Position numbers and translations under genes: made by a program | In this document: positions 1,957-23,321 of the stretch, one piece after another | How positions within the stretch are numbered: position 1 is the stretch's first letter | Layout: every line of letters starts with the position of its first letter | The notes under the pieces: generated by a model | The model's database searches: none | Told to the model about the DNA's origin: nothing | Seen by the model: the letters and a program-made list of their open reading frames with translations, nothing else | DNA from: a virus | Taxonomy: Duplodnaviria > Caudoviricetes | Length of the DNA: 30,884 nucleotides | IMG/VR virus record: IMGVR_UViG_3300011335_000737 | Span: 1 to 30,884 of that record | Reading direction: 5' to 3' (one strand)

Positions 1957-2391
1957 TTAGATTCCGAAAGCGGTGTGCGCTCCAGCATCGGTAGCGCTGC
2001 TAATTCCGTCCTGCGGGTAACTAAGATCGGCGGCGAGAGTCAGTGCAAAGTTAGTTGCACCAATACCGCAAGTGACCTTGAGATATCGCTTTCGACCGCG
2101 AAGGTCGATGTTGTACATCGTCTTCGCAACCGAAGTGAGATTGGTTGTCGTCAACGGTGTGTAGTCCGTTCCGTGAACAAGACCAGGAATAGCAGCAAAT
2201 CCCGATCCACTGGTGTCGCTTTCTTGCACTGAAGAGTTTGTCGCAGCAGTATGAATTGCCGTCGTTGCTTCAGAGAGAAGGAACACTCGGGCAAACGAAA
2301 AGCCCTTTGTGTCAAACTCTGCGGTGATTGTCGAGACTCCCGTTGTGCTTGCGGTGACCGCGCCTACAACGATTTTTGAATTACTACGCAT
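1957..2391 (-). CDS. Capsid cement/decoration protein, Bbp16-like (copy A)
   Basis: Directly after the major capsid gene; beta-rich 144 aa with DTKGF, QESD and KRYLKV, resembling BPP-1 Bbp16-type cement proteins. Confidence 0.7.
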   Translation of the reverse strand: MRSNSKIVVGAVTASTTGVSTITAEFDTKGFSFARVFLLSEATTAIHTAATNSSVQESDTSGSGFAAIPGLVHGTDYTPLTTTNLTSVAKTMYNIDLRGRKRYLKVTCGIGATNFALTLAADLSYPQDGISSATDAGAHTAFGI

Positions 2392-3851: not shown

Positions 3852-4520
3852 TCAGAGATAGATAGAACCTTTAGCACGCGCGATTTCTCGCGCGACGATT
3901 CCGTCGAGATCAATCGACCGCTTGCGCTTTGTAGAACAGTCGGTCGATGGCACGCTTACGGAAACTATGACGCGTCGCGGCGCTTCAACGCCGAAGAACT
4001 GCTTCGCTGCAACAGGCGAAACGATGCCCTTGCGTATTGCGGTGATGAGCGCGTCGGGATTTGCTTGCAGCGGCGCAAGCGATACTTCGAGCAACTTCCA
4101 TCGTGAGAAGATGCGCGTTGTTTCCTCGCCGTACTTCTTGCGGTCTACATCGGTCGCAGCGCGCACGCCGCCAGTCTCGGGTATGTACCCAACGCTCACG
4201 GCTGAAACGATTCCTTGACCGACGAGCGCGGCTGCGACTTCGGGAAAGAACTCGCCGACATACCCTTCGGGTTTTACGGCAAAGACGAAGTCGCCGACGA
4301 TGTCACGGTCACGGCGCTTGAGACCGCTCGATCGTCCGACGGGTCGCGCGTAGTCGTGATTCCAAAACAGAACAGGGTTGCGCTCGAACTCTTTCGAGTT
4401 CATGCCGCTGGGTATCAAGACTTCGCCGTCGCGGTCGAGCGTCTCGGCGCTGATGATTGCCGTGAATCCCTTTGCGGTTCCTGAGATTTCGGCGGGTAGT
4501 GCTTTGCGGATCATGTTCAT
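3852..4520 (-). CDS. HK97-family prohead protease
   Basis: DRDGEV, NPVLFWNHD, SVGY and LLEVSLAPLQANPDA motifs; ATG 4520 after GGAGAG overlaps the portal stop. Confidence 0.92.
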   Translation of the reverse strand: MNMIRKALPAEISGTAKGFTAIISAETLDRDGEVLIPSGMNSKEFERNPVLFWNHDYARPVGRSSGLKRRDRDIVGDFVFAVKPEGYVGEFFPEVAAALVGQGIVSAVSVGYIPETGGVRAATDVDRKKYGEETTRIFSRWKLLEVSLAPLQANPDALITAIRKGIVSPVAAKQFFGVEAPRRVIVSVSVPSTDCSTKRKRSIDLDGIVAREIARAKGSIYL

Positions 4521-8957: not shown

Positions 8958-10172
8958 TTACACCGTTTCGAGTGTTGCTTTCTTGCCCGTTAGTTTTTCC
9001 CAGCGCGCGACGATGACATCGCAGTACTGCGGAGAGATCTCCATTCCGTAGCACTTGCGGTTGAGTTGTTCTGCGGCAATGAAAGCAGTTCCAGAACCAG
9101 CATAAATATCAGCAACCGTATCGCCCGTCTCGCTGTTGTTGCTGTAAGCGTTAGCGTAAAGGGCGACTGGCTTCATTGTTGGATGGATATTACATTTTTG
9201 CTCTCGGTCTATCTCCCAGATACTAGTTCGATGCTCTCCAGCCATCACTTTTTTGTGTTTTTTGCACCATGTAAAAAGTATTGGCTCATGTTGGTAGTCG
9301 TAGTCAAGTCTTCCCATTGAGAATGTCGGCTGGTTTTTTTTCCATATCAGCACGTGCCTTGGTCGAAGTCCCGCCTCTTGCATCATCATCATCATCATGC
9401 TTAGTTCTCCACCCTGTGGAGCAGTGACAAACAATGAGCAATCTTCAGCCATGATGTTTTTTCTTAGCGATATAAATGCAGGCAATAGCATCGCCTTAAG
9501 ATCATCTGGCTTCATATCGTCTGATTCAATGTTTTCTAAACATATTCCAGCCTTTAAAAAACTGTTCAAAAAACGATTTTTTGCGCCTAACGAAACTCCA
9601 TACGGTGGATCAGTAAACACGCAAACCGCGCGATTGCCGCGCATCAACCGCGCGACATCATCAACGCTCGTCGAGTCGCCGCACATCACGCGATGATCGC
9701 CAAGCAACCACACATCGCCGCGCTTCGTGATCGCGACTGCTGGCGGCTCTGGTACTTCGTCCTCGATGACTTCGTCAGGCGCAAGCAGCGCGTCGATGTC
9801 CGTTTCGTCGAAGCCAGTTGCGAGCGCGAGTTCCTCGTCTTCGATTTGCAGCGCAGCCAGTTGTTCCGCGAGCGAGCCTTCGTCCCACTCTGCGAGTTCA
9901 GCCGTGCGATTGTCGGCGATGGCGTACGCATTCGCTTCGCTTCCCTTGAGCGGCGAGCGCACGATGGCGATCTCGGTGTATCCGAGTTGCTGCGCAGCCA
10001 TCAGCGTCCCGTTACCTGCGCGCACGATGCCGTTCGCGTCGACGACGATCGGCTTCTGCTGCCCGAATCGCTTGAGACTCGCGATGATCGATTGAATGTT
10101 CTTCTCGGGATGCTTGCGCACATTCGCGGGATCGAGAGAGAGAGAAGCAATCGGGACTAGTTCACTTTGCAC
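8958..10172 (-). CDS. ParB-like N-terminal domain fused to an N6-adenine/N4-cytosine DNA methyltransferase (beta class)
   Basis: FGQQKPIVVD...AGNG...ADNR ParB domain, then DPPY, HPTMKP and DIYAGSGT in beta-class order. Confidence 0.92.
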   Translation of the reverse strand: MQSELVPIASLSLDPANVRKHPEKNIQSIIASLKRFGQQKPIVVDANGIVRAGNGTLMAAQQLGYTEIAIVRSPLKGSEANAYAIADNRTAELAEWDEGSLAEQLAALQIEDEELALATGFDETDIDALLAPDEVIEDEVPEPPAVAITKRGDVWLLGDHRVMCGDSTSVDDVARLMRGNRAVCVFTDPPYGVSLGAKNRFLNSFLKAGICLENIESDDMKPDDLKAMLLPAFISLRKNIMAEDCSLFVTAPQGGELSMMMMMMQEAGLRPRHVLIWKKNQPTFSMGRLDYDYQHEPILFTWCKKHKKVMAGEHRTSIWEIDREQKCNIHPTMKPVALYANAYSNNSETGDTVADIYAGSGTAFIAAEQLNRKCYGMEISPQYCDVIVARWEKLTGKKATLETV

Positions 10173-10644
10173 GGTGCGCCTCCATGTTCAAACTACACCA
10201 GTGTCGCGAACAGTTTGCGCCTTCAGCGCCGACGATTTGCAAGCGATCAAAGCCCGACTCTTCAAGCAAGCCAGCCAACTTCGACGCAGTAAAAATCGCG
10301 AGATGTATGTCGTGATTGTCTATGTGACCGCCCATGATGTAGCGTTCGAGTTGATTGTCTTCGAGACCCGACAGCATCGCGCCGACGATCTTTGCGAAGT
10401 CTGGAACAGCGACATAGAGCCGACCGTCTGGCTTGAGTACGCGGTTCCATTCGACGAGCGCGGCTTCCGTTTGGAAGTACGAAATGTGTTCGAGTACATG
10501 AGACGCGCGGATCTCATCGACGCTCTCATCCGCGAGCGCGGAGAGGTCGCGACAGTCGCGACCGTCTTTGATGTCCCAAGACGACCAGCCATCTTCGAGC
10601 GCGCTACCTGCGCCGATGTCGATGCGAACGAGTTGTTCTTCCAT
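10162..10644 (-). CDS. Class I SAM-dependent methyltransferase (small-molecule/glycan type)
   Basis: RIDIGAG, SVDEIRASHVLEHI and RVLKPDGRLYVAVPD motifs. Confidence 0.88.
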   Translation of the reverse strand: MEEQLVRIDIGAGSALEDGWSSWDIKDGRDCRDLSALADESVDEIRASHVLEHISYFQTEAALVEWNRVLKPDGRLYVAVPDFAKIVGAMLSGLEDNQLERYIMGGHIDNHDIHLAIFTASKLAGLLEESGFDRLQIVGAEGANCSRHWCSLNMEAHRAK

Positions 10645-12843: not shown

Positions 12844-13037
12844 TTCGCGCCTGCGGCTTCGCTCGTCACGCCGTTGTCGCGAGCGAAGAAACCGATCCCG
12901 ATCGCGGCGAGCGCAGCGAAGACTGCTTCAATGCTGAACACCGTCGCGGGATCATTGTCGAGTAGCGCCGACGCTTGAAGCGATAGGATCGAGAGACCGG
13001 CGAGAACACCGACGGTAGTTGTCTTCCATGATTTCAT
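12840..13037 (-). CDS. Holin-like two-TM protein
   Basis: MKSWKTT start, two hydrophobic segments, FARD tail; 65 aa. Confidence 0.65.
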   Translation of the reverse strand: MKSWKTTTVGVLAGLSILSLQASALLDNDPATVFSIEAVFAALAAIGIGFFARDNGVTSEAAGAK

Positions 13038-13300
13038 TGGTAGTCTTTCTTTTTGAGTTCTGCGAGACCGTGCTTCGCAAGGTCAATTGTGAGATGGCTC
13101 AACGCATCCGCGATCTTCTCGACAGTCACTTCGAGTCTACGAATCCTATCGGCTGATTGAGTGCGGTCGGCTTCGAGCAGCGTCTGAATATGTCGCAAGT
13201 CGGTGCGAAGACCGTACATCTGACCGAGCAGCCAGACGACCGCGCCGATACTAGGGAACAGCACGATACCGACGATCTTGAGGACATCTTCAATCGTCAA
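13034..13300 (-). CDS. Single-TM plus coiled-coil protein (lysis-cassette type)
   Basis: TTG start 6 nt after GGAGA; IVGIVLFPSIGAVVWLL followed by a heptad-like region. Confidence 0.6.
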   Translation of the reverse strand: MTIEDVLKIVGIVLFPSIGAVVWLLGQMYGLRTDLRHIQTLLEADRTQSADRIRRLEVTVEKIADALSHLTIDLAKHGLAELKKKDYQ

Positions 13301-13643
13301 CGGATTTCTCCAAAGCAGAGACTCTACGCGATAGGGCGCGCAGGTCGCTAAGCGCGACGAGTAGATAGAAATCGGTGTCTCCATTCTCGCGGAGCAGCAC
13401 GACAGGGACATCTCCTGGTTTCGCTGCGTCAACAGCGGCTTGTTCGTAGAACCGCAAGCAGGAATGCGCGGCTCGCGACTTAACTTCAAAGTGAACGCCG
13501 TCGAGCGTCGTAGTTAAGTCGGCATCGCCAGCGCCGCCGCAGTACTGGACGCTGCGCCGCGCTTCAATGCTTAGCCAGTAGTTAAGCGCCTTCGCGGCTT
13601 CGCGTTCCATGCGCTTACCTTTTTGTTTGCTGAGTGATCCCAT
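13290..13643 (-). CDS. Holliday junction resolvase-like PD-(D/E)xK nuclease
   Basis: SKQKGKRMERE...GDADL...HFEVK, the Hjc-like phage pattern. Confidence 0.82.
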   Translation of the reverse strand: MGSLSKQKGKRMEREAAKALNYWLSIEARRSVQYCGGAGDADLTTTLDGVHFEVKSRAAHSCLRFYEQAAVDAAKPGDVPVVLLRENGDTDFYLLVALSDLRALSRRVSALEKSVDD

Positions 13644-13650
13644 TCTAAGC

Positions 13651-13661
13651 ACTCTATCGGC
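13651..13661 (-). promoter_or_regulatory. Candidate promoter (GCCGA-TAGAGT), possibly leaderless, at the start of the late block
   Basis: CCGATAGAGTG is identical to the -10 region at 21662-21672; 7 nt separate TAGAGT from ATG 13643; no -35 match. Confidence 0.5.
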
Positions 13662-13701
13662 AAACGCCTACTTTTTATAGAGCCGATGGAATGTAAGTTC
13701 C

Positions 13702-13932
13702 CTATCTTGCGAAGCCCGAACATAGTTCGTTAAGACCGATATGGGATTCATGGAGCGGGAAGCCATGCCCGATGAACACGCGCGCGACGGTCTGCGCGTT
13801 GAGCGCGATGCGTACGCGGATCTTCGCCGCTTCGATGTCGTTGCGACCCAGCGCGATAGCCGTCGCGTGGATGCGTCCGCGCTTCTCATGCCGCGCGAAG
13901 CCGCGAACGATGTAAGTCTCGGGCGCGCTCAT
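13702..13932 (-). CDS. Hypothetical protein (76 aa)
   Basis: MSAPETYIV...; ATGA-coupled to the upstream ORF. Confidence 0.55.
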   Translation of the reverse strand: MSAPETYIVRGFARHEKRGRIHATAIALGRNDIEAAKIRVRIALNAQTVARVFIGHGFPLHESHIGLNELCSGFAR

Positions 13933-14078
13933 CTTCGCGCCACGCTGGCGACTCTGTCCGCGAGAGAGCAGATAGAGAGATAGAGCGTGAGACCCACGAC
14001 GGTGAAGAGAAAGCACACTTCGCGCATGAAGATGAGCGCCGCGCTCTCGTCAGGTCGGTCGTCGTAATCGTCGTTCAT
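13929..14078 (-). CDS. Small single-TM protein (49 aa; not in ORF track)
   Basis: MNDDYDDRPDESAALIFMREVCFLFTVVGLTLYLSICSLADRVASVARR; GGAGG upstream; ATGA overlaps at both ends. Confidence 0.65.
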   Translation of the reverse strand: MNDDYDDRPDESAALIFMREVCFLFTVVGLTLYLSICSLADRVASVARR

Positions 14079-14305
14079 TGTGTCGCCTCCTTGAAGCAAT
14101 CCCACCCTCGCCGTGCGGCGTGTTCAACCCTCAGAGTCGAGAGGCGAACATTCGATCCCAGCAGAGACAGGTTTTCTGCCGTTCTCTCACACACTTCACG
14201 CCGCGCTTCGTCGCGCTCGCTAATCGCTTCGTCGCGCTCTTTAATGATGTTTTCGGTAACGGCTAATAGGTCACCTAAGCGGCGCATATAGTCATGAACA
14301 TTCAT
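14075..14305 (-). CDS. Hypothetical protein, ERD.ARR..C...WDCFK family copy 1
   Basis: ERDEARREVC...RGWDCFKEATQ; paralogous to 14302-14565. Confidence 0.7.
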   Translation of the reverse strand: MNVHDYMRRLGDLLAVTENIIKERDEAISERDEARREVCERTAENLSLLGSNVRLSTLRVEHAARRGWDCFKEATQ

Positions 14306-14565
14306 GGTGTCGCCTGCTTGAAACAATCCCAGTTTCTTTCGTCGGCAAAATCGCGCATAAATAAATCGCGCCCACGATCAATACTCCAGTCGTCGGGGGT
14401 CGCGAATATATCCCAACCGCCCGTAGCCAACGCACCGCACGCTAGCCGCCGCGCAGCGTCGCGCTCTTTGGTGACCTGTTTGAGTTCACCCTCAAGCCGA
14501 GCGGCTTCCGTGTTTGCCGCAAAAATTGCGCTGATCATTTCATTGTGTGTCAATGGTTTGGTCAT
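14302..14565 (-). CDS. Hypothetical protein, ERD.ARR..C...WDCFK family copy 2
   Basis: ERDAARRLAC...RNWDCFKQATP. Confidence 0.7.
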   Translation of the reverse strand: MTKPLTHNEMISAIFAANTEAARLEGELKQVTKERDAARRLACGALATGGWDIFATPDDWSIDRGRDLFMRDFADERNWDCFKQATP

Positions 14566-14611
14566 GGTCTCAATCTTCCATCGATGTTCTCCTTGGCGCG
14601 TGAGTTAATGC

Positions 14612-14791
14612 TCACGGCTGGGGATCCAACCATTTATTAAAGCACAATGCGCACTTCTTGCAAGCATCCCAACACTTCGTGAGGTTGTCCTCATTCGGGC
14701 AGTCATCACAGATGCGAACCGTCCTACCGCAATTGCAGGTGTGCTTGGTGACTTTGTCATTGGGGATATCCCCGTGGTCGTAAACCTTCAT
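14612..14791 (-). CDS. Cys-rich small protein (59 aa)
   Basis: GGAGG upstream; CNC, CDDC, CWDAC, CALC. Confidence 0.6.
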   Translation of the reverse strand: MKVYDHGDIPNDKVTKHTCNCGRTVRICDDCPNEDNLTKCWDACKKCALCFNKWLDPQP

Positions 14792-14843
14792 ATCGTGCCC
14801 TCCTTTGTTGGTGGCGCTTGGCGCGAATAGCGCTCGTTCGCGC

Positions 14844-15056
14844 TCATCGCTCTTCCTTCCTCTCGATGCGCGGAAGCCCGAGCAGGTCGTCCGCTGCATC
14901 TTCCGCAGCGTGGAGCCGCGCGAACGATTCGCGCGTCGTCAACTCAAGATTGCAAAGTTCGCGATCCGCGAGTCGGTACGCCATCAGAACATCGCGATAG
15001 GTCGCGATGTTCGCGGCAAGACGCGCGCGCATTTCTTCCATTGAGTCAATCTGCAT
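14844..15056 (-). CDS. Hypothetical protein (70 aa)
   Basis: TGATG coupling with the upstream gene; helical composition. Confidence 0.55.
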   Translation of the reverse strand: MQIDSMEEMRARLAANIATYRDVLMAYRLADRELCNLELTTRESFARLHAAEDAADDLLGLPRIERKEER

Positions 15057-15271
15057 CAGACGACCTTCCCTTCTGCGTACTTCGTCGGCTGCGGAACATA
15101 CTCAACGGGCGCAATCTTGCCGCAAGCCATGCATTTCAGTTGCGGGATGACCTGAGCGTGGAAATACGCATCGTCATACCCGTTGCGCTTCACTTTGTCG
15201 CCGCAATGCTCGCAAATAAACATCGCCGTAAAGTCGCGTCGGTGCTGGCTGATCATTGTCTCAATCCTCAT
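15056..15271 (-). CDS. Zinc-ribbon protein (71 aa)
   Basis: RRDF...CEHCG...GYDD..FH...CMACG; preceded by the start-associated hairpin. Confidence 0.75.
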   Translation of the reverse strand: MRIETMISQHRRDFTAMFICEHCGDKVKRNGYDDAYFHAQVIPQLKCMACGKIAPVEYVPQPTKYAEGKVV

Positions 15272-15285
15272 CGTCTCTCGATTCT

Positions 15286-15299
15286 GCGGCTCATGCCGC
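15286..15299 (-). promoter_or_regulatory. Start-associated hairpin (GCGGC-ATGA-GCCGC)
   Basis: Followed by AGAATCGAGAGACG-ATG. Confidence 0.7.
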
Positions 15300-15300
15300 G

Positions 15301-15693
15301 TTAAGTTGCCTGCCATACGCGAGCGTTCCGACCGCTGCGCGTCTTTCGTTTCGCCGTCGCGATCACCGCGCCAGAGTTCATCAAGCCATTGATGGCGGCG
15401 CTAGCCGATTGATGCGTGAGGTTAAGCGCGATCTCGACTTCATCGCAGGTTGATGGATTCTCGCGAATGTACGCGAGGATTCGCGCAGGCTGATCAGCGA
15501 GACGCTGCGCGTACGCTTCGTCCTGCGTTGCCCATCGCGTCTCCTGGTGCTGCGTTGACCTTGGAGGATCGACCGTCGCGAAGCGCGCGTTGGGCAACGC
15601 GTTCTTCGATATAGATTGTGGGCTTGGAAGATTTGCAGCGAAGAGCGGCGAGGCGCTCCAATCGGGTTTCGTCGCGTAGTTTTTGTCGCTCAT
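15301..15693 (-). CDS. Winged helix-turn-helix DNA-binding protein
   Basis: RILAYIREN.STCDEVE.ALNLTHQSASAAINGL...G...RKTRSGRNARVW; start uncertain. Confidence 0.75.
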   Translation of the reverse strand: MSDKNYATKPDWSASPLFAANLPSPQSISKNALPNARFATVDPPRSTQHQETRWATQDEAYAQRLADQPARILAYIRENPSTCDEVEIALNLTHQSASAAINGLMNSGAVIATAKRKTRSGRNARVWQAT

Positions 15694-16087
15694 GTAGCGC
15701 CCGAGCCTTCTCTATTAATGCAGATTTCTCTGCTTTGCGTTTGATGTCTGCTGCTCTGTTCTTTATTTTCAAGCGGTTCAATTCGTTCTCAGCACGATAA
15801 AACATCCCGCGCAGTTTTTGTAATTGCTTGTCGTGCGCTTGCACTAGGTCGCGCCATCCGTTCGGCTTGCTCCATGTTTCTGCGGTCAAGCCGTAGCGCG
15901 CGAGTAAGGCGTGCGCTTGACGCAGCAGGTCTTCAAGTTCCCTGTTTTTCTCTTGTGTTAACCGCAGGTTTTCGCGCGTTGAGCGCAGGTCGATGACATC
16001 GAACTTGCGCCGCTCGTTCTCAATCAACGGCGCAAAAGACCGCGCGAAGGCGGCTTCCTGTTCTAGTCGTGTTTTGTTGTCGCTCAT
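15494..16087 (-). CDS. Hypothetical coiled-coil protein (197 aa)
   Basis: MSDNKTR... after GAGGAG, ATGA-coupled; the last 200 nt overlap the wHTH ORF. Confidence 0.55.
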   Translation of the reverse strand: MSDNKTRLEQEAAFARSFAPLIENERRKFDVIDLRSTRENLRLTQEKNRELEDLLRQAHALLARYGLTAETWSKPNGWRDLVQAHDKQLQKLRGMFYRAENELNRLKIKNRAADIKRKAEKSALIEKARALHERQKLRDETRLERLAALRCKSSKPTIYIEERVAQRALRDGRSSKVNAAPGDAMGNAGRSVRAASR

Positions 16088-16281
16088 TCGCTGCGCTCCT
16101 CTACGGTTTGCGCGACGGCTCGCGTGATGCGAACCGACTGATCGAAGCAGAACGCGACCTTGATTTTTGCATCGTTCGGAACGCGCTTGATGGTCACCGT
16201 TCCGATTTCCACGCCGCCGATGGCAAGCGTAATTTCGTCGTCTTCGCGCATATTGCGAAGTATGCATCCTCGTTTTTTCAT
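16084..16281 (-). CDS. Divergent CsrA/RsmA-like RNA-binding protein (65 aa)
   Basis: GGAGG upstream; CILRNMREDDEITL...GTVTIKRVPNDAKIKVAFCFDQSVRITR follows the CsrA pattern (LILTRRVGETLMI...VTVTVLGV.GNQVRIGVNAPKEVSVHR) in size and strand spacing. Confidence 0.55.
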   Translation of the reverse strand: MKKRGCILRNMREDDEITLAIGGVEIGTVTIKRVPNDAKIKVAFCFDQSVRITRAVAQTVEERSE

Positions 16282-16550
16282 ATCGCCTCCATGCTGGCGC
16301 GACTCCCAGCGTCGGTCGGCGCGAAGCCGACCGACGCGCTGAGGAGACGAGCATCCGCATCCTGCGGGTTCAGCGGGTCGCAGTGTACTCGCACGCGATA
16401 CGCGCACGCGCGGCGAATCCACATGAGCGCGCGCGCTTCGTCCAGCGTCTGCGGAACGGTTCGCTCGGCGAGCGACGCGAGACCGTCGCAGACGCGAGAC
16501 GAGAGATGAGGTCGTCGGTCGGTTCCTGATGCTTTTGCGTGGTCAATCAT
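16278..16550 (-). CDS. Hypothetical protein (90 aa)
   Basis: MIDHAKASGTDRRP...; stop overlaps the CsrA-like start. Confidence 0.55.
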   Translation of the reverse strand: MIDHAKASGTDRRPHLSSRVCDGLASLAERTVPQTLDEARALMWIRRACAYRVRVHCDPLNPQDADARLLSASVGFAPTDAGSRASMEAI

Positions 16551-16770
16551 TGTGTCGATCCTCCCAGTATCGGATGGCGTTCTCGTTCGGGTCGTTCTCA
16601 AAGTTACTCGGGCATGGGTCGCTGTGGCTAATCTCTCGACTGAGCCTAGGCAAATCAAAAACATCGTCGCACTTTGCGCACATATACGAACGACCGACGA
16701 ACTCAACCTTGCATTGGCAGCAAGTCTTGAGCGGTCGTCGGTCAGTTCCTGATGCCTTCTCGTTATTCAT
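16543..16770 (-). CDS. Zinc-finger-like protein (75 aa)
   Basis: CCQC...CAKC; shares N-terminal KASGTDRRP with the next gene. Confidence 0.6.
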   Translation of the reverse strand: MNNEKASGTDRRPLKTCCQCKVEFVGRSYMCAKCDDVFDLPRLSREISHSDPCPSNFENDPNENAIRYWEDRHND

Positions 16771-17228
16771 TGCGCGCCCCTAGCCTGCGCTAGCGCGCGC
16801 TCGACCGCCGCCGTCGCAGCCGTCGCCGCTGCGCCTTCGGCGATGGCGCTCGCGAGCGTCGCGTCCTGTACGATGTCGTACGCCGCGCGATACGCGGCGA
16901 TTTCAGCAGCCGCATAGGCTGCGTCATAGACCGCGTCGCGAGTCGCTTCCGCTAGCGGCTGCGCCTGCGCTAGCGCGCGCTCTCCTTCAGCGGTCAAGAC
17001 GATCTCGCCGTCGTCGTTCAAGTCGCGCTGCGATGCCGCGAGAAGCAGCGTCGCGAGACGGTCGAGACTCGCTGCGGCTTCGCGCAACTCCTGAAGACCG
17101 CCGTAGCGACCGAGTTCTTCGCGCTCCTCAATCTGGCGATCGATCTCCTGCGCTGCGCCGATGGCTGCGCGCGCGGTCGTGATTGCGTCTGAGAGAGAGA
17201 GAGAGATTGAAACGGTCGGCTGGCTCAT
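16767..17228 (-). CDS. Ala-rich hypothetical protein (153 aa)
   Basis: Start within repeat copy 1; internal ERALAQA duplication; (GA)8 tract near the 5' end. Confidence 0.65.
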   Translation of the reverse strand: MSQPTVSISLSLSDAITTARAAIGAAQEIDRQIEEREELGRYGGLQELREAAASLDRLATLLLAASQRDLNDDGEIVLTAEGERALAQAQPLAEATRDAVYDAAYAAAEIAAYRAAYDIVQDATLASAIAEGAAATAATAAVERALAQARGAQ

Positions 17229-17319
17229 GGTGTCTCATTTCTGCGGCATCGTGCCGCGTCTGTGCTGATCATGCGGAGTGCATGGCGAGAGAGCGCAGGG
17301 TAGCGCTCGCTCACCGCGC
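17216..17319 (-). repeat. ~105-bp intergenic direct repeat, copy 1 (long hairpin + linker + start hairpin + RBS + MSQP)
   Basis: Near-identical to 17791-17895. Confidence 0.92.
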
Positions 17320-17329
17320 ATTCAAGCGA

Positions 17330-17803
17330 TCACGCGCTCGCCCAGCAGTCCACATGATCGCCGCGCACTATCGCGGTAAATACTCCAGTGCCGCCATCAT
17401 GGCGAGCCGCTTCAATGCTCGCCGCGAGGTCGGCGCGCGTTGCGCGTCGCAACTCCACGCCGTCGATGTAGCGATAGAGCGTCGGTCGAGCAGACTGCTC
17501 ATCGCTGTACGCTTCCGCGCGCAGTTCCATCCACGCGATGGTCGCTGCGTTCGTCGCCGTGATCCCTCGCGGGAGTTTGCCGCGCAGCAGTTGCGTCGCC
17601 ATTCGGCGCGCGCTGGCGCGTCCGTGATTAAGCGCGGCAATCGCGTGGATTCCGTTGCAGGTCGTGCCATTCACGGAGTAGTGATACGACGCGAGATCAG
17701 TGAGTACCAGCGCCTGTCCCTTGATGGTGATCAATCCGATTTCGCGTGCGTCGATTCGTGCGGCTTGCGTCTTGCAGTTTGGTGATTTTTTCGGCTGGCT
17801 CAT
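17330..17803 (-). CDS. Hypothetical protein (157 aa) flanked by the two repeats
   Basis: True start MSQPKK at 17803 inside repeat copy 2. Confidence 0.65.
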   Translation of the reverse strand: MSQPKKSPNCKTQAARIDAREIGLITIKGQALVLTDLASYHYSVNGTTCNGIHAIAALNHGRASARRMATQLLRGKLPRGITATNAATIAWMELRAEAYSDEQSARPTLYRYIDGVELRRATRADLAASIEAARHDGGTGVFTAIVRGDHVDCWASA

Positions 17804-17895
17804 GTTCGTCTCGTTTCTGCGGCATCGTGCCGCGTCTGTGCTGATCATGCGGAGTGCATGGCGAGGGAGCGCATCGCTGCGCTCCCTCACCGCGC
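17791..17895 (-). repeat. ~105-bp intergenic direct repeat, copy 2
   Basis: Contains GGTGAGGGAGCGCA-GCGA-TGCGCTCCCTCGCC and GCGGCACGATGCCGC. Confidence 0.92.
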
Positions 17896-17897
17896 GC

Positions 17898-18143
17898 TCA
17901 CGCGTTAAATAATTGGTCGCCAGCGTGCGCTTTATCGTACGCACGATCAAGCGCACGCTGAAGCGTGAGACCGAGATCTTGCGCGAGGTCAAGGTCGATG
18001 TGCTTGAGCGAAGATTGATCGCGACGAAGTTCAATCGAGATGATTCGATTGAGTTCAATGATTTGCTTGAGCGCGTTCCGCAGAGCGACGCGGTCTGCAA
18101 GGCTGGTTGTTGCGGCTGGTGTGGTGGTATTTGATGCGGTCAT
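17898..18143 (-). CDS. Hypothetical protein (81 aa)
   Basis: MTASNTT... after the start hairpin and GAGAC. Confidence 0.65.
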   Translation of the reverse strand: MTASNTTTPAATTSLADRVALRNALKQIIELNRIISIELRRDQSSLKHIDLDLAQDLGLTLQRALDRAYDKAHAGDQLFNA

Positions 18144-18160
18144 TCGTGGTCTCGATTTCT

Positions 18161-18175
18161 GCGGCATCGTGCCGC
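18161..18175 (-). promoter_or_regulatory. Start-associated hairpin (GCGGC-ACGAT-GCCGC)
   Basis: Identical to 17243-17257 and 17819-17833; followed by AGAAATCGAGACCACGA-ATG. Confidence 0.8.
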
Positions 18176-18214
18176 GTTAATTCTTGTCTCGCGGAGAGCG
18201 TCTCTGCGATGGAT

Positions 18215-18244
18215 GTAGTATCGACTATCCGCGCCAAGATGCAA
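18215..18244 (-). promoter_or_regulatory. Candidate promoter TTGCAT-N18-TACTAC
   Basis: Shares GCTNTTGCATC-N14-CGATA with 21663-21692; intergenic and AT-richer. Confidence 0.55.
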
Positions 18245-18299
18245 CAGCATATATCGAGATTCCGTAAGATTGTCCGTATTCCTGATACTATCGGGCTCT

Positions 18300-18866
18300 C
18301 TATTGATCCTGCTTGCGCTTCGGAGGCGCGGAAACCCTCGACGAGTACCAAACGGAAGCCGAACACTCGATCCCTGCAAGGTCTGTTCGGTTCCTGTTCG
18401 TGCAAAGATCGCTCACCGCGATCAAGTAGGCGCGGCTCCATTCGTCGCGCGAGTCTGGGGCGCGCTCCCAGCCGACGCGATAGAGCGCCGCGAGGATCTC
18501 CGACACCAACTGCGGCTCGGCTGCGTCGATCTCCGCGCGTCGCGCCGCCCAGTCTGCGGCGACGGTTGCCGCCTCGACATCGAGCGCGACCGCGCGATCG
18601 TTCGACGACGCGACGCGACGCGCGCTCTGTTCGCGGTCGTCGTTCTCCGTCGTCAATTTGCCGTAGATTTCAAAGTATTTCGCGGGAATAAATCGACCGC
18701 GCAGACCGCCGTACTGGAGCGCGTATTGATCGAGCGCGTTCATGCAGACACTCAAACGCAAGCCAGCGATGCGCGACTTCGCGAGCGCGAAAATATCTTC
18801 GTCCATTTCGCCGCGAAAGAGTTTGCGCACGCGCGCGACAAACTCAGCAAGTTCGGGCGCGTTCAT
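18300..18866 (-). CDS. Hypothetical protein, possibly helicase-loader-like (188 aa)
   Basis: Helical N-terminal ~70 aa ending in RFIP resembles phage loader/inhibitor domains; weak evidence for function. Confidence 0.55.
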   Translation of the reverse strand: MNAPELAEFVARVRKLFRGEMDEDIFALAKSRIAGLRLSVCMNALDQYALQYGGLRGRFIPAKYFEIYGKLTTENDDREQSARRVASSNDRAVALDVEAATVAADWAARRAEIDAAEPQLVSEILAALYRVGWERAPDSRDEWSRAYLIAVSDLCTNRNRTDLAGIECSASVWYSSRVSAPPKRKQDQ

Positions 18867-19183
18867 GGCTTCGCCTTCGGTGGATGTTCGCGCGCGAGCC
18901 GCTGAATCATTTCGACATAGGACGCAATGCGTTCGGCTTCATCGATCGCCGCTTGCGCGAATGCTTTGCGCTCGCGCTCTTGCGACTCATCCCATCGCGC
19001 CTGTCTTTCGGCGGCTTGCCTGAGCCATTCCGCGCTCGGCGGCGCTGGCGGCACTTCGTCGAACTCGTCGGGCGAGCGTTGGCACGATGTATCAAACGCG
19101 TGCGAGAGTGCGTAGGTGAGATCGTTCGCGCTGCGTAGCACATCGGTACGCTCGCGCATTCTGTTTTCGGTTTCGTCTTGCAT
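18863..19183 (-). CDS. Hypothetical protein (106 aa)
   Basis: MQDETENR after GGAGACACCT; ATGA-coupled downstream. Confidence 0.6.
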   Translation of the reverse strand: MQDETENRMRERTDVLRSANDLTYALSHAFDTSCQRSPDEFDEVPPAPPSAEWLRQAAERQARWDESQERERKAFAQAAIDEAERIASYVEMIQRLAREHPPKAKP

Positions 19184-19195
19184 AGGTGTCTCCAT

Positions 19196-19214
19196 GCGCA
19201 GCGTCATGCCGCGC
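19196..19214 (-). promoter_or_regulatory. Start-associated hairpin variant (GCGCGGC-ATGAC-GCTGCGC)
   Basis: One G.U pair on the minus-strand RNA; 12 nt before ATG 19183. Confidence 0.65.
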
Positions 19215-19223
19215 GCGGAAATC

Positions 19224-19634
19224 CTAGCAGATCACGCGCACAGTTGCATTAGCATCGGAATCGATCGATACGCCGTCAATCGGATCGTGGAGTTGCGTGT
19301 GGATTGAAGTTCGACCCGTTGTCCCCTGCGTTTCGGAGACCTTCAAGTAGCGCTTTTTGCCGAGCATTGAAACCTCGAAGACGACCTTCGCGCTGGTCGT
19401 CACATTCGTCGCGGTGCTGGGAGTCCAGTCGGTTCCCGTCACGCAATTTGGAATCGCGACCCAAGTTGAGTTGTCGTCGGAATGCTCGATTTTTGTAGCG
19501 GTTGTCGCCGCGCTGTTGTTTGAGGAGCAAACAGAAATCGAAGCAAAACGAAAGCCTTGCGTGTCAATCGATGCAGTGCAACTGACGGCGCTCGCTTCAG
19601 CGAAAGCGAAACCGACATTTTGATGTGAGCGCAT
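19224..19634 (-). CDS. Capsid cement/decoration-like protein (copy B, paralogue of 1957-2391)
   Basis: MRS start, DTQGF, EHSD, AIP..V.GTDWTP.T.TN.T..AK, GKKRYLKV and P.DGVS all match copy A. Confidence 0.78.
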   Translation of the reverse strand: MRSHQNVGFAFAEASAVSCTASIDTQGFRFASISVCSSNNSAATTATKIEHSDDNSTWVAIPNCVTGTDWTPSTATNVTTSAKVVFEVSMLGKKRYLKVSETQGTTGRTSIHTQLHDPIDGVSIDSDANATVRVIC

Positions 19635-19647
19635 ATTTGATCCTTGC

Positions 19648-19884
19648 AAAAGAAGAGAGAGAGAACGACTAGCAGACTGCTAGAGAATGATCGGCAATTC
19701 GAGCAGCCACATCTAGTCGCTCTCTCTCTCTTCTCTCTCGCTGGTTCGCGCGGTCGATCTATCTCCGCTCATCGATCACGCATCGCAGCGCGGTTCACGC
19801 GAGCGATCGCAACGCAGAGGAGAGAGAGAGATGTATCTAGCGCACCAGACGATCGGATCGAGAACGATAGGCAAACGCGATAAG
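19648..19884 (-). ncRNA. Candidate structured leader or small RNA
   Basis: No credible ORF; 22-bp inverted repeat 19651-19672/19713-19734 whose single mismatch is G.U on the minus strand; extra complementary CU tract at ~19817-19831; directly downstream of a promoter match. Confidence 0.45.
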
Positions 19885-19888
19885 GGGG

Positions 19889-19918
19889 GTTCTAGGGGGG
19901 AAATAGGTATTCTGTCAA
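19889..19918 (-). promoter_or_regulatory. Candidate sigma70-type promoter TTGACA-N18-TAGAAC
   Basis: Perfect -35 with A-tract upstream; lies after a terminator. Confidence 0.65.
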
Positions 19919-19957
19919 GCGATTTTTCCTATGAAATCTCAAGATAGCGTAAATGGA

Positions 19958-20011
19958 TATGCACTTGAGCGATGCATACTTATGCAGTATGCAGAAAGTT
20001 TATGCAGAAAG
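19958..20011. repeat. Clustered TATGCA / TATGCAGAAAG short repeats
   Basis: TATGCA four times plus ATGCATA; TATGCAGAAAG twice, in an AT-rich intergenic stretch. Confidence 0.65.
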
Positions 20012-20026
20012 ATGGCGTATCAGCGC

Positions 20027-20063
20027 AAAAACGAAACAGCCGCGCGGTTTTGCCGCGCGGCTG
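20027..20063 (-). terminator. Intrinsic terminator
   Basis: CAGCCGCGCGG-CAAAA-CCGCGCGGCTG then TTTCGTTTTT, just after the 20078 stop. Confidence 0.9.
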
Positions 20064-20077
20064 ATCGACTCGCGAAA

Positions 20078-20452
20078 CTAACTTCGGCTTGCGGCTTGAC
20101 CGCGCCAACAAAGGATCATCCCGACGCTGAGCGCGCATAGGTCGAAGCGTAGCGCAGGAGTTACGCACTCCCACCGCAGACGCGCAGCGCGAACGCGACG
20201 CGCCGAAATCCCAAGCGTCACGGCGAGCGCGTCAGGGAGCGGCGAGAGATGCCCAGCGCGAAGGTCGTAGCAGAGACCGACGCGCAGGAGCCGACGAACA
20301 CCGGGAGGAGTTCGGTCGTCCGTCGCGAGAATCTTCGCGCACTGCAAGATCTCGCTCACTTCGTACGGGCGAAATACCGTCGGGTCTTCGTCCTCTATTC
20401 CGATCTGAGATCGGATAGAAGCCACGCCGACTGGGTCGAGTATGTCACGCAT
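20078..20452 (-). CDS. Hypothetical protein with HTH-like segment (124 aa)
   Basis: [18 protein letters not shown]; start after GAAGG overlaps the recombinase end. Confidence 0.55.
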
Positions 20453-21524
20453 ACGCGCCTTCCTCTCTCACGCCGACGATGATCAGTTTCGCGCCGCGAC
20501 GCTCGCAGACACAATTAGAAATCAAACCAAACGCTTGGTTCGCTTCAATGCCTGCGGCAATCGCCTCGTCGATGATCGCGAGCGGCGCGTACCCGTCTTG
20601 ATCGACGCGCCAGACGCGCCGCCCTTGCGCGTTTGTCACGACGCTGATCTTCGCAGCGCCATCGATGGCGATGACTTCGACATTCTCGCGCAGAGATTCC
20701 CGAGGGTCAATTGCAGCCGAAGGCGCTGGCGTTGCGACGGGAGCCGTGTTGAACTGGTCGCGCGCCGTCATCTGATCCACATAGACCGTTAGCGCGTTCG
20801 GTGCGTCGACTCGTTGCGCGAGTTGCTCGGCTCGAATTGCCGCGCAATCATCCGACGCGGCAAGCGCTTCGACTGGCTTCGATCGCTTGCGCGGCGCAGG
20901 CGCAACCGCCGGCGCAGGAACAGGCGCAACCGCCGGCGCAGGAACAGGCGGCAACACCGCGACCGACTCGGACGCGGCTTGCGCCATTTCCTCGCCCGTG
21001 TAGAGTCCGCTGAGTTCCGCAGGAAACGCCTTGCGCAACGCAAGCGCCTCCGCACATTTCGCGAGCATGAGCGACGGCATCTTCGCCCACAATCCCGACG
21101 GGAAGCCGTCTTTCCTGGTCTGCTGATACTCGCGCATGAGAGCGAGACCGTAGCACGCTTCGCGGAAGTTGCGCCGATGCACACCGACGCGCGCCGCAAC
21201 TGGCGGCGCAACCGCGAGCCAGACATCGAGCCAAACGCCATCGGCTCCGCACCATTGCGGCGAAGTCTGTCCCTCGTAGTCTCCGCTTCGCTGCGCGATC
21301 AAGCGAAACCCGTCAATGCTGACCTGAGTCTGCATCACTTCGCGGCTCTCTCGCGAGTCCCAGCGCTTCACTGCGAATATCTGGCGCGCAAACGGGTCGA
21401 GTCCTGTGCGATCACAAACCGCAGCGAATAGCGCGAGTTCGTCGCGCGTCGCGCCTTTGCAAAGCGTCTGCGCGATGAGGTCTATCTTCTCCTGCGTCAA
21501 TTTGATGATGGCGAGTTCACTCAT
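20445..21524 (-). CDS. bet: Bet/RecT-family single-strand annealing recombinase
   Basis: [46 protein letters not shown] and GLYT.EEM motifs; Pro/Ala linker with a 24-nt tandem repeat. Confidence 0.92.
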
Positions 21525-21621
21525 TAGAATCGCCTCCGATCGCGCGGACGAGCGCAACGATGGCGAACGGTGACGCAACTACGGCGAGTTGCACAATCTG
21601 AGATACGATATCCAATGTCAT
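21517..21621 (-). CDS. Small single-TM peptide (34 aa; not in ORF track)
   Basis: [34 protein letters not shown] after GGAGACACC; first ORF after the candidate early promoter. Confidence 0.65.
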
Positions 21622-21637
21622 GGTGTCTCCAATTTCT

Positions 21638-21656
21638 GCGCGGCATCATGCCGCGC
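21638..21656 (-). promoter_or_regulatory. Start-associated hairpin (GCGCGGC-ATGAT-GCCGCGC)
   Basis: Followed by AGAAATTGGAGACACC-ATG. Confidence 0.75.
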
Positions 21657-21662
21657 GGTGAC

Positions 21663-21692
21663 ACTCTATCGGATCGATCGCAATGGATGCAA
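21663..21692 (-). promoter_or_regulatory. Candidate early promoter TTGCAT-N18-TAGAGT
   Basis: At the tail/early-gene boundary; matches elements at 18215-18244 and 13651-13661. Confidence 0.6.
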
Positions 21693-21991
21693 TAGCAAAA
21701 ACCGAGAAAGTTCCTAAAGCGCAGAATCGACGAGTGCGAAAGCATCTCCACGCGTGCATCCTCGCGCTGCGGCTGCGCAATCTCGGCGCAGGCTTCGAGC
21801 CGCGCCCAGCGTCACGCACGATCTCTCTCATCTATCCGACTTGGGAACTGCTCGACGCGCTCACGCTGGCGCTCGATCTCTGCGAGGAAGAAAGCCTTCG
21901 CGTGTTAGTTTCGCAGGCGCGCACTGTCACGCTTAAGAACTTAGTTACGCAATCAGACCATCTGAAATCGTCTCTGAGCCAACATAGTTAG
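21683..21991 (+). CDS. Possible divergent regulator-like protein (only plus-strand candidate)
   Basis: Fills a gap with no convincing minus-strand ORF; PTWELLDALTLALDLCEEE resembles the end of XRE-type HTH domains. Confidence 0.3.
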   Translation: MDAIAKTEKVPKAQNRRVRKHLHACILALRLRNLGAGFEPRPASRTISLIYPTWELLDALTLALDLCEEESLRVLVSQARTVTLKNLVTQSDHLKSSLSQHS

Positions 21992-23321
21992 CAGGCAAAC
22001 TAAGTCCCTTGTGGTACATACCAAAGAGCCTATCGAACGCGGCTGCAATTAAGCCTTCGTTGTTGTTCGTGAAGTTATATCGCGCGTTGTCGTCGGCGTA
22101 CCAGTCGGCGCTACCAGCAACAATCGCAAGCGAAGCGCCGCCTGAAGCGATCGGCATCATCTCCGCAATGACGATTTCGTCAATATAGAAAGCAGCAACT
22201 GCGACCGCGACCGTCGTTTCAATCACGATATAAGTGTCCTGCGGAATGACGCGCGGAGACCTAATCATTGCCGAGTAAAGTTGATACGAAGTTGTCGCCG
22301 CCGCGATACTTAGTTCGTTCTTAAAGAGCGCGCTGTCGAGGATCGTACCTGCTGAATCTTGGATCGAGACGACAACGGTTCCCGTCGCGCCTGCGTCCTT
22401 CATGCCTGCGAACGAGATCACATAGGGACGATCAGGCGTGAGCCGACCGAGTGTTCCCGTCGAGACTCCCATCTGCTGGCGAATGCGGAACACGGAACCC
22501 GTGACATTTAGTTTGAGCGCCTTAGTTCCGCGAAAGATGTTCGTCGTCTCGGTCGTGAACTCAGTACCAGCCGCGCCGCTCACGACGGTGAAAAGATCAG
22601 GCAAGTGGGAGGTCTGGTCTTCAAGATCGGTGTTCGAGCAAATGTTCTGCGCGCGGTTGCCATTGTCAACAGATGCAGAAATTGAACTCATACGCATGAG
22701 CGTTCCGCTACCCGCGGGGAATCGATAGTCAAGTTCCGAGTACGACGGCTGTCCGCGAATCTCAAACACTTCCGCGCCGCGCGCGACGCTGTAGTTCTGC
22801 GCGTCTTGCACGCAGCGCGCCTCTACCATTTCGGTTCGGATGTTTGGGAAATCCGCAGTAGAGCCGAGCAGGATGTTTGGCGCGTCGAACGAATACAAAA
22901 ACTTCCCGTTGCCGTTGTTCGAGCCGCCGACAGAGAGAGCAGACTTCGTGATCGTCGTTCCGTCAATGGTCTCAGTGTCTGCGTCCATCTCGCGAATCAG
23001 CCAGACGAGCGCGTCGGTCAACGCCTTCCGCGCCATCGCGTTCGTCGTTGAAGTCTGCGCAACCGCGAAGCACATTTCAACTAGCGTCTTCTCGGCGGCG
23101 GCGCGAACATCGTTGAGAACGCCGCCAGTCTCCGAGATGCGACCTTCGATGTTTCCGCTTAGACCATCGATCATCCACGAATCAGCCGACGAGTATTCGC
23201 CTTGCACATTCGCGAGCAAGGTTTTCAAGTTAGTTTGGTGCGTGCGCACCGCGTCCATCATGTAGATGAGCGCGCCAAGTCGAGTGAAGAGTCCGTTCGC
23301 GCCGTCGTAGGTAAGTGCCAT
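21945..23321 (-). CDS. Putative virion structural protein, tail-end module (458 aa)
   Basis: Last gene of the tail block; helical N-terminus and beta-rich carbohydrate-binding-like C-terminal region. Confidence 0.65.
   Translation of the reverse strand: MALTYDGANGLFTRLGALIYMMDAVRTHQTNLKTLLANVQGEYSSADSWMIDGLSGNIEGRISETGGVLNDVRAAAEKTLVEMCFAVAQTSTTNAMARKALTDALVWLIREMDADTETIDGTTITKSALSVGGSNNGNGKFLYSFDAPNILLGSTADFPNIRTEMVEARCVQDAQNYSVARGAEVFEIRGQPSYSELDYRFPAGSGTLMRMSSISASVDNGNRAQNICSNTDLEDQTSHLPDLFTVVSGAAGTEFTTETTNIFRGTKALKLNVTGSVFRIRQQMGVSTGTLGRLTPDRPYVISFAGMKDAGATGTVVVSIQDSAGTILDSALFKNELSIAAATTSYQLYSAMIRSPRVIPQDTYIVIETTVAVAVAAFYIDEIVIAEMMPIASGGASLAIVAGSADWYADDNARYNFTNNNEGLIAAAFDRLFGMYHKGLSLPANYVGSETISDGLIA

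Follow-up and report, generated by a model that had tools for sequence, protein, structure and literature searches.

Start-proximal RNA hairpins in the early region of a tailed phage genome, with a divergent CsrA-like protein as their candidate reader

The stretch of DNA analysed here (hereafter the window) is a near-complete tailed phage genome of 30,884 nucleotides (nt), from a virus record that is 95% complete and whose ends overlap. Every gene examined is encoded on the minus strand. One side carries the terminase, portal-like and capsid genes, and the region of ~13-21.7 kb encodes RecT, a RusA-like nuclease, helix-turn-helix (HTH)-like proteins and small open reading frames (ORFs); it is named early here because of these genes. 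This early region carries the two subjects of the present analysis, a family of short hairpins placed just before start codons and the gene of a 65-amino-acid (aa) protein related to CsrA, the candidate reader of these hairpins (Table 1).

An earlier note, made from the sequence alone, had described six minus-strand hairpins, each located between ORFs and 12-17 nt before an ATG. All six are present at the reported places, intergenic and at the reported distances (hairpins 1 to 6 in Table 1). Each is followed by GAGAC, via AGAA in five cases; two of them (hairpins 1 and 2) have longer stems and hairpin 2 includes a G·U pair, as had been reported. Their confinement to the early region was also verified, no stem of at least 5 pairs with this loop being found in the window outside 15286-21656. 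A strict pattern gives five exact matches in the window and none in each of 100 shuffles, hairpin 2 departing from this pattern by its G·U pair. A seventh member of the family, overlooked so far, lies ahead of the CsrA-like gene. All seven have a short stem closed by C-G and a loop starting with A; GGA occurs in the loop of none of the six reported hairpins and is present in that of hairpin 7. The GAGAC sequence also precedes hairpin-free starts at 4518, 12819 and 14563 and is therefore an RBS-type signal (RBS, ribosome-binding site) rather than part of the hairpin identity. An altered host anti-Shine-Dalgarno sequence was considered as its cause and rejected, since this sequence is ordinary in five likely-host genomes. 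None of the window hairpins is terminator-like on the sense strand. A motif-like AUGAU loop on a 4-pair stem was also seen on the minus strand at 17395-17401, in the 3'-terminal part of ORF 17330-17803, where no start codon follows.

Table 1. Hairpins, predicted promoters and associated genes in the early region of the window, in the direction of transcription
Feature	Coordinates	Strand	Description
Promoter P1 (predicted)	21663-21692	-	-35 TTGCAT, 18-nt spacer, -10 TAGAGT; predicted +1 is the first base of hairpin 1
Hairpin 1	21638-21656	-	Loop AUGAU; 16 nt before a 34-aa ORF (21517-21621) overlapping the RecT start; homologous site in relatives
RecT-family annealase	20445-21524	-	Pfam PF03837, E 2.5e-30; in the unit headed by hairpin 1
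Hairpin 2	19196-19214	-	Loop AUGAC, one G·U pair; 12 nt before ORF 18863-19183
Hairpin 3	18161-18175	-	Loop ACGAU; 17 nt before ORF 17898-18143
Hairpin 4	17819-17833	-	Loop ACGAU; 15 nt before ORF 17330-17803; in cassette copy 1 (17808-17904)
Hairpin 5	17243-17257	-	Loop ACGAU; 14 nt before ORF 16767-17228; in cassette copy 2 (17232-17328)
90-aa ORF	16278-16550	-	Tail reads through the structured leader; stop overlaps the CsrA-like start (ATGA)
Internal promoter (predicted)	16382-16387	-	-10-like hexamer TACACT, 14 nt before hairpin 7; TAnnnT at 9-16 nt in 21/23 lineages
Hairpin 7	16355-16367	-	4-pair stem, canonical loop AGGAU; 83 nt before the CsrA-like start
Rest of leader	16286-16349	-	Anti-RBS 16341-16349; 11-pair GC stem 16309-16337; decoy GGGAG 16303-16307; RBS GGAGG 16286-16290
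Divergent CsrA-family protein	16084-16281	-	65 aa; proposed reader, identified by profile, fold and relatives
Hairpin 6	15286-15299	-	Tetraloop AUGA; 14 nt before a 71-aa zinc-ribbon-like ORF (15056-15271, phrog_14808)

The hairpin family is conserved across a clade of ~30-kb tailed phages. Relatives were gathered in two independent ways, by the hairpin and by a neighbouring gene encoding a 458-aa protein, and pattern matches without related genes were dropped as due to chance (6/17: L002, L004, L006, L007, L009 and L010; 6/16: L049, L052, L053, L057, L058 and L060; in addition L041, L153 and L171). In 67 loci anchored on the 458-aa gene, which include the window and are not independent of one another, motif-loop hairpins stand before starts 155 times in 354 kb of early region, compared with 6 times in 635 kb of structural side. 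In a set of 24 lineages, one per distinct CsrA-like protein, candidates were then selected on loop, RBS and start only; the four pairs next to the closing pair are all Watson-Crick in 82 of the 194 early candidates and in 0 of the 41 structural-side ones. The 94 sites that have three or more pairs, a few of which are probably chance matches, show 4-10 pair types at each stem position, the closing C-G being kept, and the distance from the closing G to the start codon is 14-26 nt in 92 of them. Relatives swap genes between these hairpins.

Non-Watson-Crick pairs in the 94 sites amount to 7 G·U, 1 A·C and 4 others. Because the stems vary with compensatory changes and G·U exceeds A·C 7 to 1, the element is an RNA; the earlier note had favoured an RNA hairpin over a DNA operator, and the covarying stems, the G·U bias and the restriction of all sites to the sense strand before an RBS agree with this. 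A palindromic operator recognised as DNA by a phage HTH protein would account for the four window copies that form perfect 6-bp inverted repeats around 3 nt, for the presence of HTH-like ORFs and for the many sites just downstream of -10 boxes. However, the arms vary freely with compensation around an asymmetric centre that is fixed and is 4, 5 or 6 nt long, which, with the pairing bias and the constant strand, makes such an operator most improbable.

The loops of the 94 sites fall into 30 with GGA, 52 of the form A-H-G-A-(N), 5 of the form A-N-G-G-Y and 7 others. This search demanded the first A and the third G of the loop; when this was not demanded, no family of pentaloops without G3 appeared. 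The CsrA site has been described as A(N)GGAX closed by C-G, N and X being optional (PMC4005645), and the canonical loops of the clade, which span AGGA, AGGAY, ANGGA and ANGGAN, cover this set. At one homologous site AGGAC, ACGAC and AUGAC alternate. The register is therefore fixed and the first G is the relaxed base. The proposal that the loops are CsrA sites with one G changed is thus borne out by the alternation of canonical and changed loops at homologous positions. Furthermore, loop class is concordant within genomes (0.84 vs 0.53, p 0.0002), copies with unlike stems agree in loop class in 83 of 97 pairs, and the class differs between the well-supported sister lineages L113 and L114 in a tree of the anchor gene, which need not be the tree of the early modules since these may recombine. 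A loop class common to unlike stems and different between sisters points to a reader acting in trans. The most deviant class, with loop AGGUC and RBS GGAGUC, was seen at L023:7530-7565 and 10485-10525 and in the first leader of L096; in the AGGUC lineage, the CsrA-like gene follows a resolvase-like gene.

The CsrA-like label given to the 65-aa protein proved correct, although not trivially so: the window protein has no CsrA match in Pfam or PHROG, and the link goes through its relatives and a fold search. Against Pfam PF02599 it gives no match at E 0.1, nor in the genome search, and stays below the curated cut-off. Pfam CsrA is matched by 4 of 19 homologs (best E 1.6e-5); a profile of seven homologs finds 213 proteins and, among the best 50 of these 213, which were scanned, 27 match PF02599 and 21 pass the cut-off. 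The hhalign probability of 98.6% is partly circular, the sequences having been chosen by profile. A structure model built from a 19-row alignment (pLDDT, the predicted local distance difference test score, 81.5) has only CsrA/Rsm proteins in its top 12 Foldseek rows, with probabilities of 0.82-0.99 and E values of only 0.15-0.88. The homodimer prediction scores 0.39, compared with a mark of 0.42. The gene is under purifying selection: compared with the nearest relative, it shows 15 synonymous codon differences and 4 non-synonymous ones. Its nearest named relatives are CsrA proteins of Phycisphaerales, which keep Arg44.

Several positions of the CsrA fold are of interest for RNA recognition. 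Arg54 of the window protein aligns with Arg44, at the end of strand 5, and an equivalent of this Arg is found in 17 of the 24 lineages (one per distinct CsrA-like protein). The hydrophobic residue 4 is replaced by Arg in 20/24 lineages (Arg9 in the window), and in RsmN the first G of GGA packs against residue 4 (PMC3791407). The Pro37 column holds Asp47 in the window. The better model of the window protein has no C-terminal helix H1; RsmN also lacks this helix (PMC3791407).

The co-occurrence of gene and hairpins, suspected in the earlier note, holds in 32/32 cases: of the 32 loci whose early region extends over at least 7.5 kb, 31 have the gene there, and for the 32nd it was found in the whole contig. 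Several flanking ORFs are present in only 1-2/31. Outside the clade, phage G001 carries one hairpin, nearly identical to hairpin 5 of the window, and a weak, very divergent CsrA-like candidate (L045:994-1218, minus strand; E 0.12, no Pfam match).

The CsrA-like gene is itself preceded by a structured leader, found by folding the 130 nt before each such gene. This conserved leader comprises a -10-like hexamer, a hairpin of the family and an anti-RBS, together with a long GC stem and either one or two GGAG elements. A family hairpin stands in the leader directly before the CsrA-like gene in 23/30 lineages, compared with a background of 5.4%, and hairpin and anti-RBS are found together in 20/30, compared with 0.7%. 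The loop of this leader hairpin is canonical (AGGAY or ANGGAN) in 14/23 lineages and differs at the first G in the other 9. The leader is the head of the unit that contains the CsrA-like gene. It is read through by the 90-aa ORF in 22/23 lineages, and the stop of this ORF lies no more than 8 nt from the next start in 20/23, mostly as ATGA, which suggests that the ORF is translationally coupled to the CsrA-like gene. The anti-RBS is predicted to be paired, with the RBS or the decoy, in 14/17 leaders; in the window it is predicted to pair with the decoy, although in the accessibility run on these 17 leaders a wrong upstream ATG was taken as the start for the window. RNAalifold on the 17 leaders recovers hairpin 7 alone, since the long stem cannot be aligned by sequence. 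Protein coding was rejected as the cause of hairpin 7. Although 20 of its 23 copies are in one frame, where a change from AGGAY to AYGAY corresponds to a Gln/His change, the hairpin is also kept when the frame differs (L095, L128), when it falls outside the ORF (L020) and when changes in the stem alter residues. In L099:16650-16690, L126:19270-19312 and L140:3120-3155, the next gene is headed by a canonical AGGA hairpin that overlaps the CsrA-like gene at its 3' end.

The reading favoured here, with a probability of roughly 60%, is that the phage protein binds these loops with a relaxed recognition of the first G and damps early translation, including its own. A CsrA-like dimer would bind loops of the form A(N)xGA(X), x being free, and such a relaxed recognition would fit the Arg that takes the place of the hydrophobic residue under that G in 20 lineages. 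Bound 14-26 nt before a start codon, the dimer would exclude the ribosome or the loading of the 30S subunit, as for the glgC hairpin. As the protein accumulates it would feed back on its own unit, as Escherichia coli CsrA does (PMC7652899), and the outcome would be a delayed damping of recombination and of other early functions, with a logic like that of T4 RegA (PMC3014915). Loops without GGA would escape the host CsrA. The sign of this control is probably repression.

Protection of 5' ends, as at flhDC, and activation are both known for CsrA. Either may possibly operate instead, especially in the leader that precedes the CsrA-like gene, in which the anti-RBS is predicted to lock the RBS. A -10-like hexamer stands 6-13 nt before the hairpin in 28 of the 94 sites (1.6% in the control), and 19 of these hairpins lie within ~3 nt of the predicted +1, so that protection of the 5' end, whether or not the protein takes part, is a live alternative. 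Hairpins at 5' ends can protect transcripts from decay. In a version without a dedicated protein, the hairpins would act in cis as 5'-terminal stem-loops that shield early transcripts or processed ends and determine how strongly they are translated. The CsrA-like protein would then have another role; it might bind host mRNA, for instance, or pair with host CsrA into inactive heterodimers. Hairpin 1, which begins at the predicted +1, fits this version, as do the 6 nt preceding the stems, 73% of which are A or C in the 94 sites, and the loss of Arg44 in 7/24 proteins; a plasmid CsrA homolog is also reported to form heterodimers with host Rsm proteins (PMC9928087). However, 66 of the 94 sites have no such hexamer, and a stabiliser acting in cis needs neither a fixed C-A-N-G loop start nor a fixed distance to the start codon, nor CsrA-consensus loops in a third of the sites, nor loop classes common to unlike stems in a genome. 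This explanation is held to be rather unlikely.

A number of results weigh against binding by the CsrA-like protein with feedback on its own unit. A first structure model, built on 8 rows that are nearly identical, did not match CsrA, and sequence profiles searched against the PDB were weak, the larger profile finding no CsrA. Two other early genes are equally common (31/31 and 30/31), so that co-occurrence in one clade is weak evidence. Three phages outside the clade (G002, G802 and G804) have one hairpin each and no CsrA-like gene was found in them, their contigs ending 1-4.5 kb downstream. No alignment column separates the GGA lineages from the xGA ones, and a single residue setting the loop class was rejected as not significant (permutation p 0.21); L107, L128, L014 and L119 keep a hydrophobic residue 4 yet have non-GGA loops, and L033, which has GGA loops only, is without an Arg44 equivalent. 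The relation between GGA in the RBS and GGA in the loop is not significant either (p 0.24 by site, 0.14 by genome). The core GGA bases are described as read by the protein backbone and not substitutable in the CsrA fold (PMC4005645). At the leader, no thermodynamic switch linking hairpin 7 to the RBS was found, as forcing the hairpin changes RBS accessibility in 0/17 cases. Finally, in 5 of the 7 lineages that lack it directly before the CsrA-like gene, the leader remains behind the 90-aa ORF and heads another gene, the CsrA-like gene being 0.4-3.7 kb downstream (the distance in L105 is estimated across a contig end). The leader is thus tied to a position and not strictly to a gene, which weakens the autoregulation part of the reading.

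This attachment of the leader to the 90-aa ORF could also mean that the reader is another phage protein, the product of this ORF or one of the two near-universal early proteins, possibly with the hairpin as a boxB-like antitermination signal or as a processing signal. Many hairpins lie near transcript starts, as nut sites do, those with the lambda boxB for example. However, the early ORFs scanned gave no match to an RNA-binding family, N-like or other, every copy stands at a fixed distance from a start codon, and the loop set overlaps the CsrA consensus while a CsrA-fold protein is at hand. Such a reader therefore appears quite improbable.

As for specificity, the earlier note had suggested that it is strictly altered and private to the phage. 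This was not upheld: 6 of the 24 lineages mix GGA and non-GGA loops, the window keeps a canonical loop in its leader, and no protein column explains the loop class, so that relaxed recognition fits better than a switch. The independence from host CsrA that had been proposed with it stands in part. Across 301 genomes of the order to which the host likely belongs, the motif does not form a regulon (5 matches, none of them a hairpin, compared with 3 in the control), and the six loops reported first are without GGA, but hairpin 7 could bind host CsrA. It can even be supposed that the reader is a host protein, most simply host CsrA, that loop classes follow the host lineage and that the phage paralog modulates or antagonises it. 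The kinship of the phage protein with Arg44-keeping CsrA of Phycisphaerales is consistent with this, as are the 14 lineages, window included, with a canonical leader hairpin, and the single hairpins of phages in which a CsrA-like candidate is weak or was not found. A host reader is nevertheless unlikely, since the characterised CsrA/Rsm proteins need GGA (PMC4005645, PMC9928087, PMC7652899), which is found in none of the six window loops first reported and in only 30 of the 94 sites, and since the motif is not enriched in the genomes of the likely order, the host itself not being established.

A stronger form of the favoured reading, still tentative and somewhat doubtful, is that CsrA would have become, in these phages, an RNA code that evolves fast and is specific to each lineage. 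The protein of each lineage would prefer its own loop class (AYGAY, AAGA, AYGAA, AGGUC or GGA), all the early leaders would change in step, and the non-GGA regulons would be invisible to host CsrA and to rival phages. If true, there would be CsrA-fold proteins with a natural non-GGA specificity, which would contradict the view of a fixed motif for this fold.

The known systems closest to this one involve CsrA/RsmE repression at a hairpin ahead of the Shine-Dalgarno sequence (E. coli glgC, RsmE-hcnA and RsmZ loops; PMC4005645, PMC7652899); they share the small beta-rich fold and the short C-G-closed hairpin with an A(N)GGA(X)-like loop beside the RBS; csrA autoregulation is also alike in having a site in the leader of the unit of the regulator itself. 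In contrast with the CsrA/RsmE systems, most loops are here without GGA, their first G being replaced, and the RBS lies outside the loop; the phage protein is under the Pfam cut-off, has Arg at position 4 and has neither Pro37 nor a predicted C-terminal helix. As for a sponge RNA with repeated loops, as in Csr systems, the Rfam matches on 13000-23000 are all below threshold, none reaching the gathering score, and the window has no cluster of motif hairpins.

Other mobile elements also encode CsrA-family proteins. Alleles of csrA occur in 30 of 2517 phage genomes (PMC7366521), and the plasmid protein RsmQ binds canonical GGA and rewires its host (PMC9928087). Whereas the phage alleles come without assigned targets in the accessible part of PMC7366521, the candidate targets here are the own genes of the phage, mostly with non-GGA loops. 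In T4, RegA represses the translation of many mRNAs of the phage and gp43 that of its own mRNA via an upstream hairpin (PMC3014915), but their folds are unrelated to that of the CsrA-like protein and RegA sites are unstructured and A+U-rich. The promoter early stem-loop (PeSL) cassettes of T4-type phages (PMC2839356) are similar in being regulatory cassettes repeated between small accessory genes, like the 97-nt duplicated cassette of the window; however, PeSL stem-loops are terminators joined to promoters, whereas the window hairpins have no U-run, have a conserved loop and stand at the RBS. In a literature search made largely without subscription papers and without supplements, neither a CsrA-family protein with non-GGA specificity nor a phage CsrA regulon of own genes was found. 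As far as this search reaches, the non-GGA loops changing in step per lineage and the structured, coupled leader are new.

The individual hairpins of the window stand in varied contexts. The -10 of P1 is conserved across 13 aligned leaders, P1 itself being under the threshold of a generic promoter scan. At hairpin 2, a predicted outer helix covers the RBS; the following ORF overlaps a 188-aa core gene (18300-18866) present in 30/31 relatives. Hairpin 3 is downstream of a predicted promoter (-35 TTGCAT at 18239-18244) and of a separate 5' hairpin. Hairpins 4 and 5 belong to the two copies, 90% identical, of a 97-nt cassette, in which a GC hairpin of 12-14 pairs is seen ahead of the motif hairpin; this cassette is likely a recombination point for gene shuffling, or a processing site.

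No cultured relative of the phage was found: the capsid protein reaches ~25% identity and the CsrA-like protein has no match. The host is likely a member of Phycisphaerales, as suggested by sequence comparisons, since the nearest named relatives of the CsrA-like protein are found there and an extended -10 motif at their loci resembles that of the phage. No related prophage was detected in 401 genomes of this order and the host is not established. Two relatives occur on 7-10 kb contigs in bins of unrelated taxa and are probably misbinned. The csrA loci of likely host-order genomes (L069-L073) have a common -10 motif 6 nt before the ATG, suggesting a leaderless message and a promoter type that would be the same as that of the phage.

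Some other features of the genome may be mentioned. Among the structural genes, minus-strand ORFs at 741-1988, 8958-10172 and 10162-10644 have, by eye, the look of a methyltransferase or glycosyltransferase and of a ParB-methylase. The small phrog_5707 gene after the capsid gene (1957-2391, minus strand) has a second copy in the early region (19224-19649, minus strand); this early copy is also found in L019, L050 and L062, and several relatives carry tandem copies beside the capsid gene. The minus-strand segment 19635-19920 is non-coding and possibly a replication origin or a structured leader. In it, a TTGACA box (19913-19918) is followed by long inverted repeats of AG/CT and a C-run, and Rfam gives only sub-threshold miRNA-type matches. 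Similar low-complexity repeats precede the 188-aa core gene in relatives.

Recognition of GGA by CsrA is described as fixed through backbone contacts (PMC4005645). In this clade, GGA and non-GGA loops alternate at the same hairpin positions and are accompanied by two dozen divergent proteins of the CsrA fold, which offers ready protein-RNA pairs for the question of whether, and how, this fold changes its specificity. Should binding fail, the hairpin family would remain an undescribed conserved RNA element. If the proposed binding is true, it would assign a function to the csrA alleles of phages, so far seen in surveys only, and such proteins might serve as small orthogonal translational repressors.

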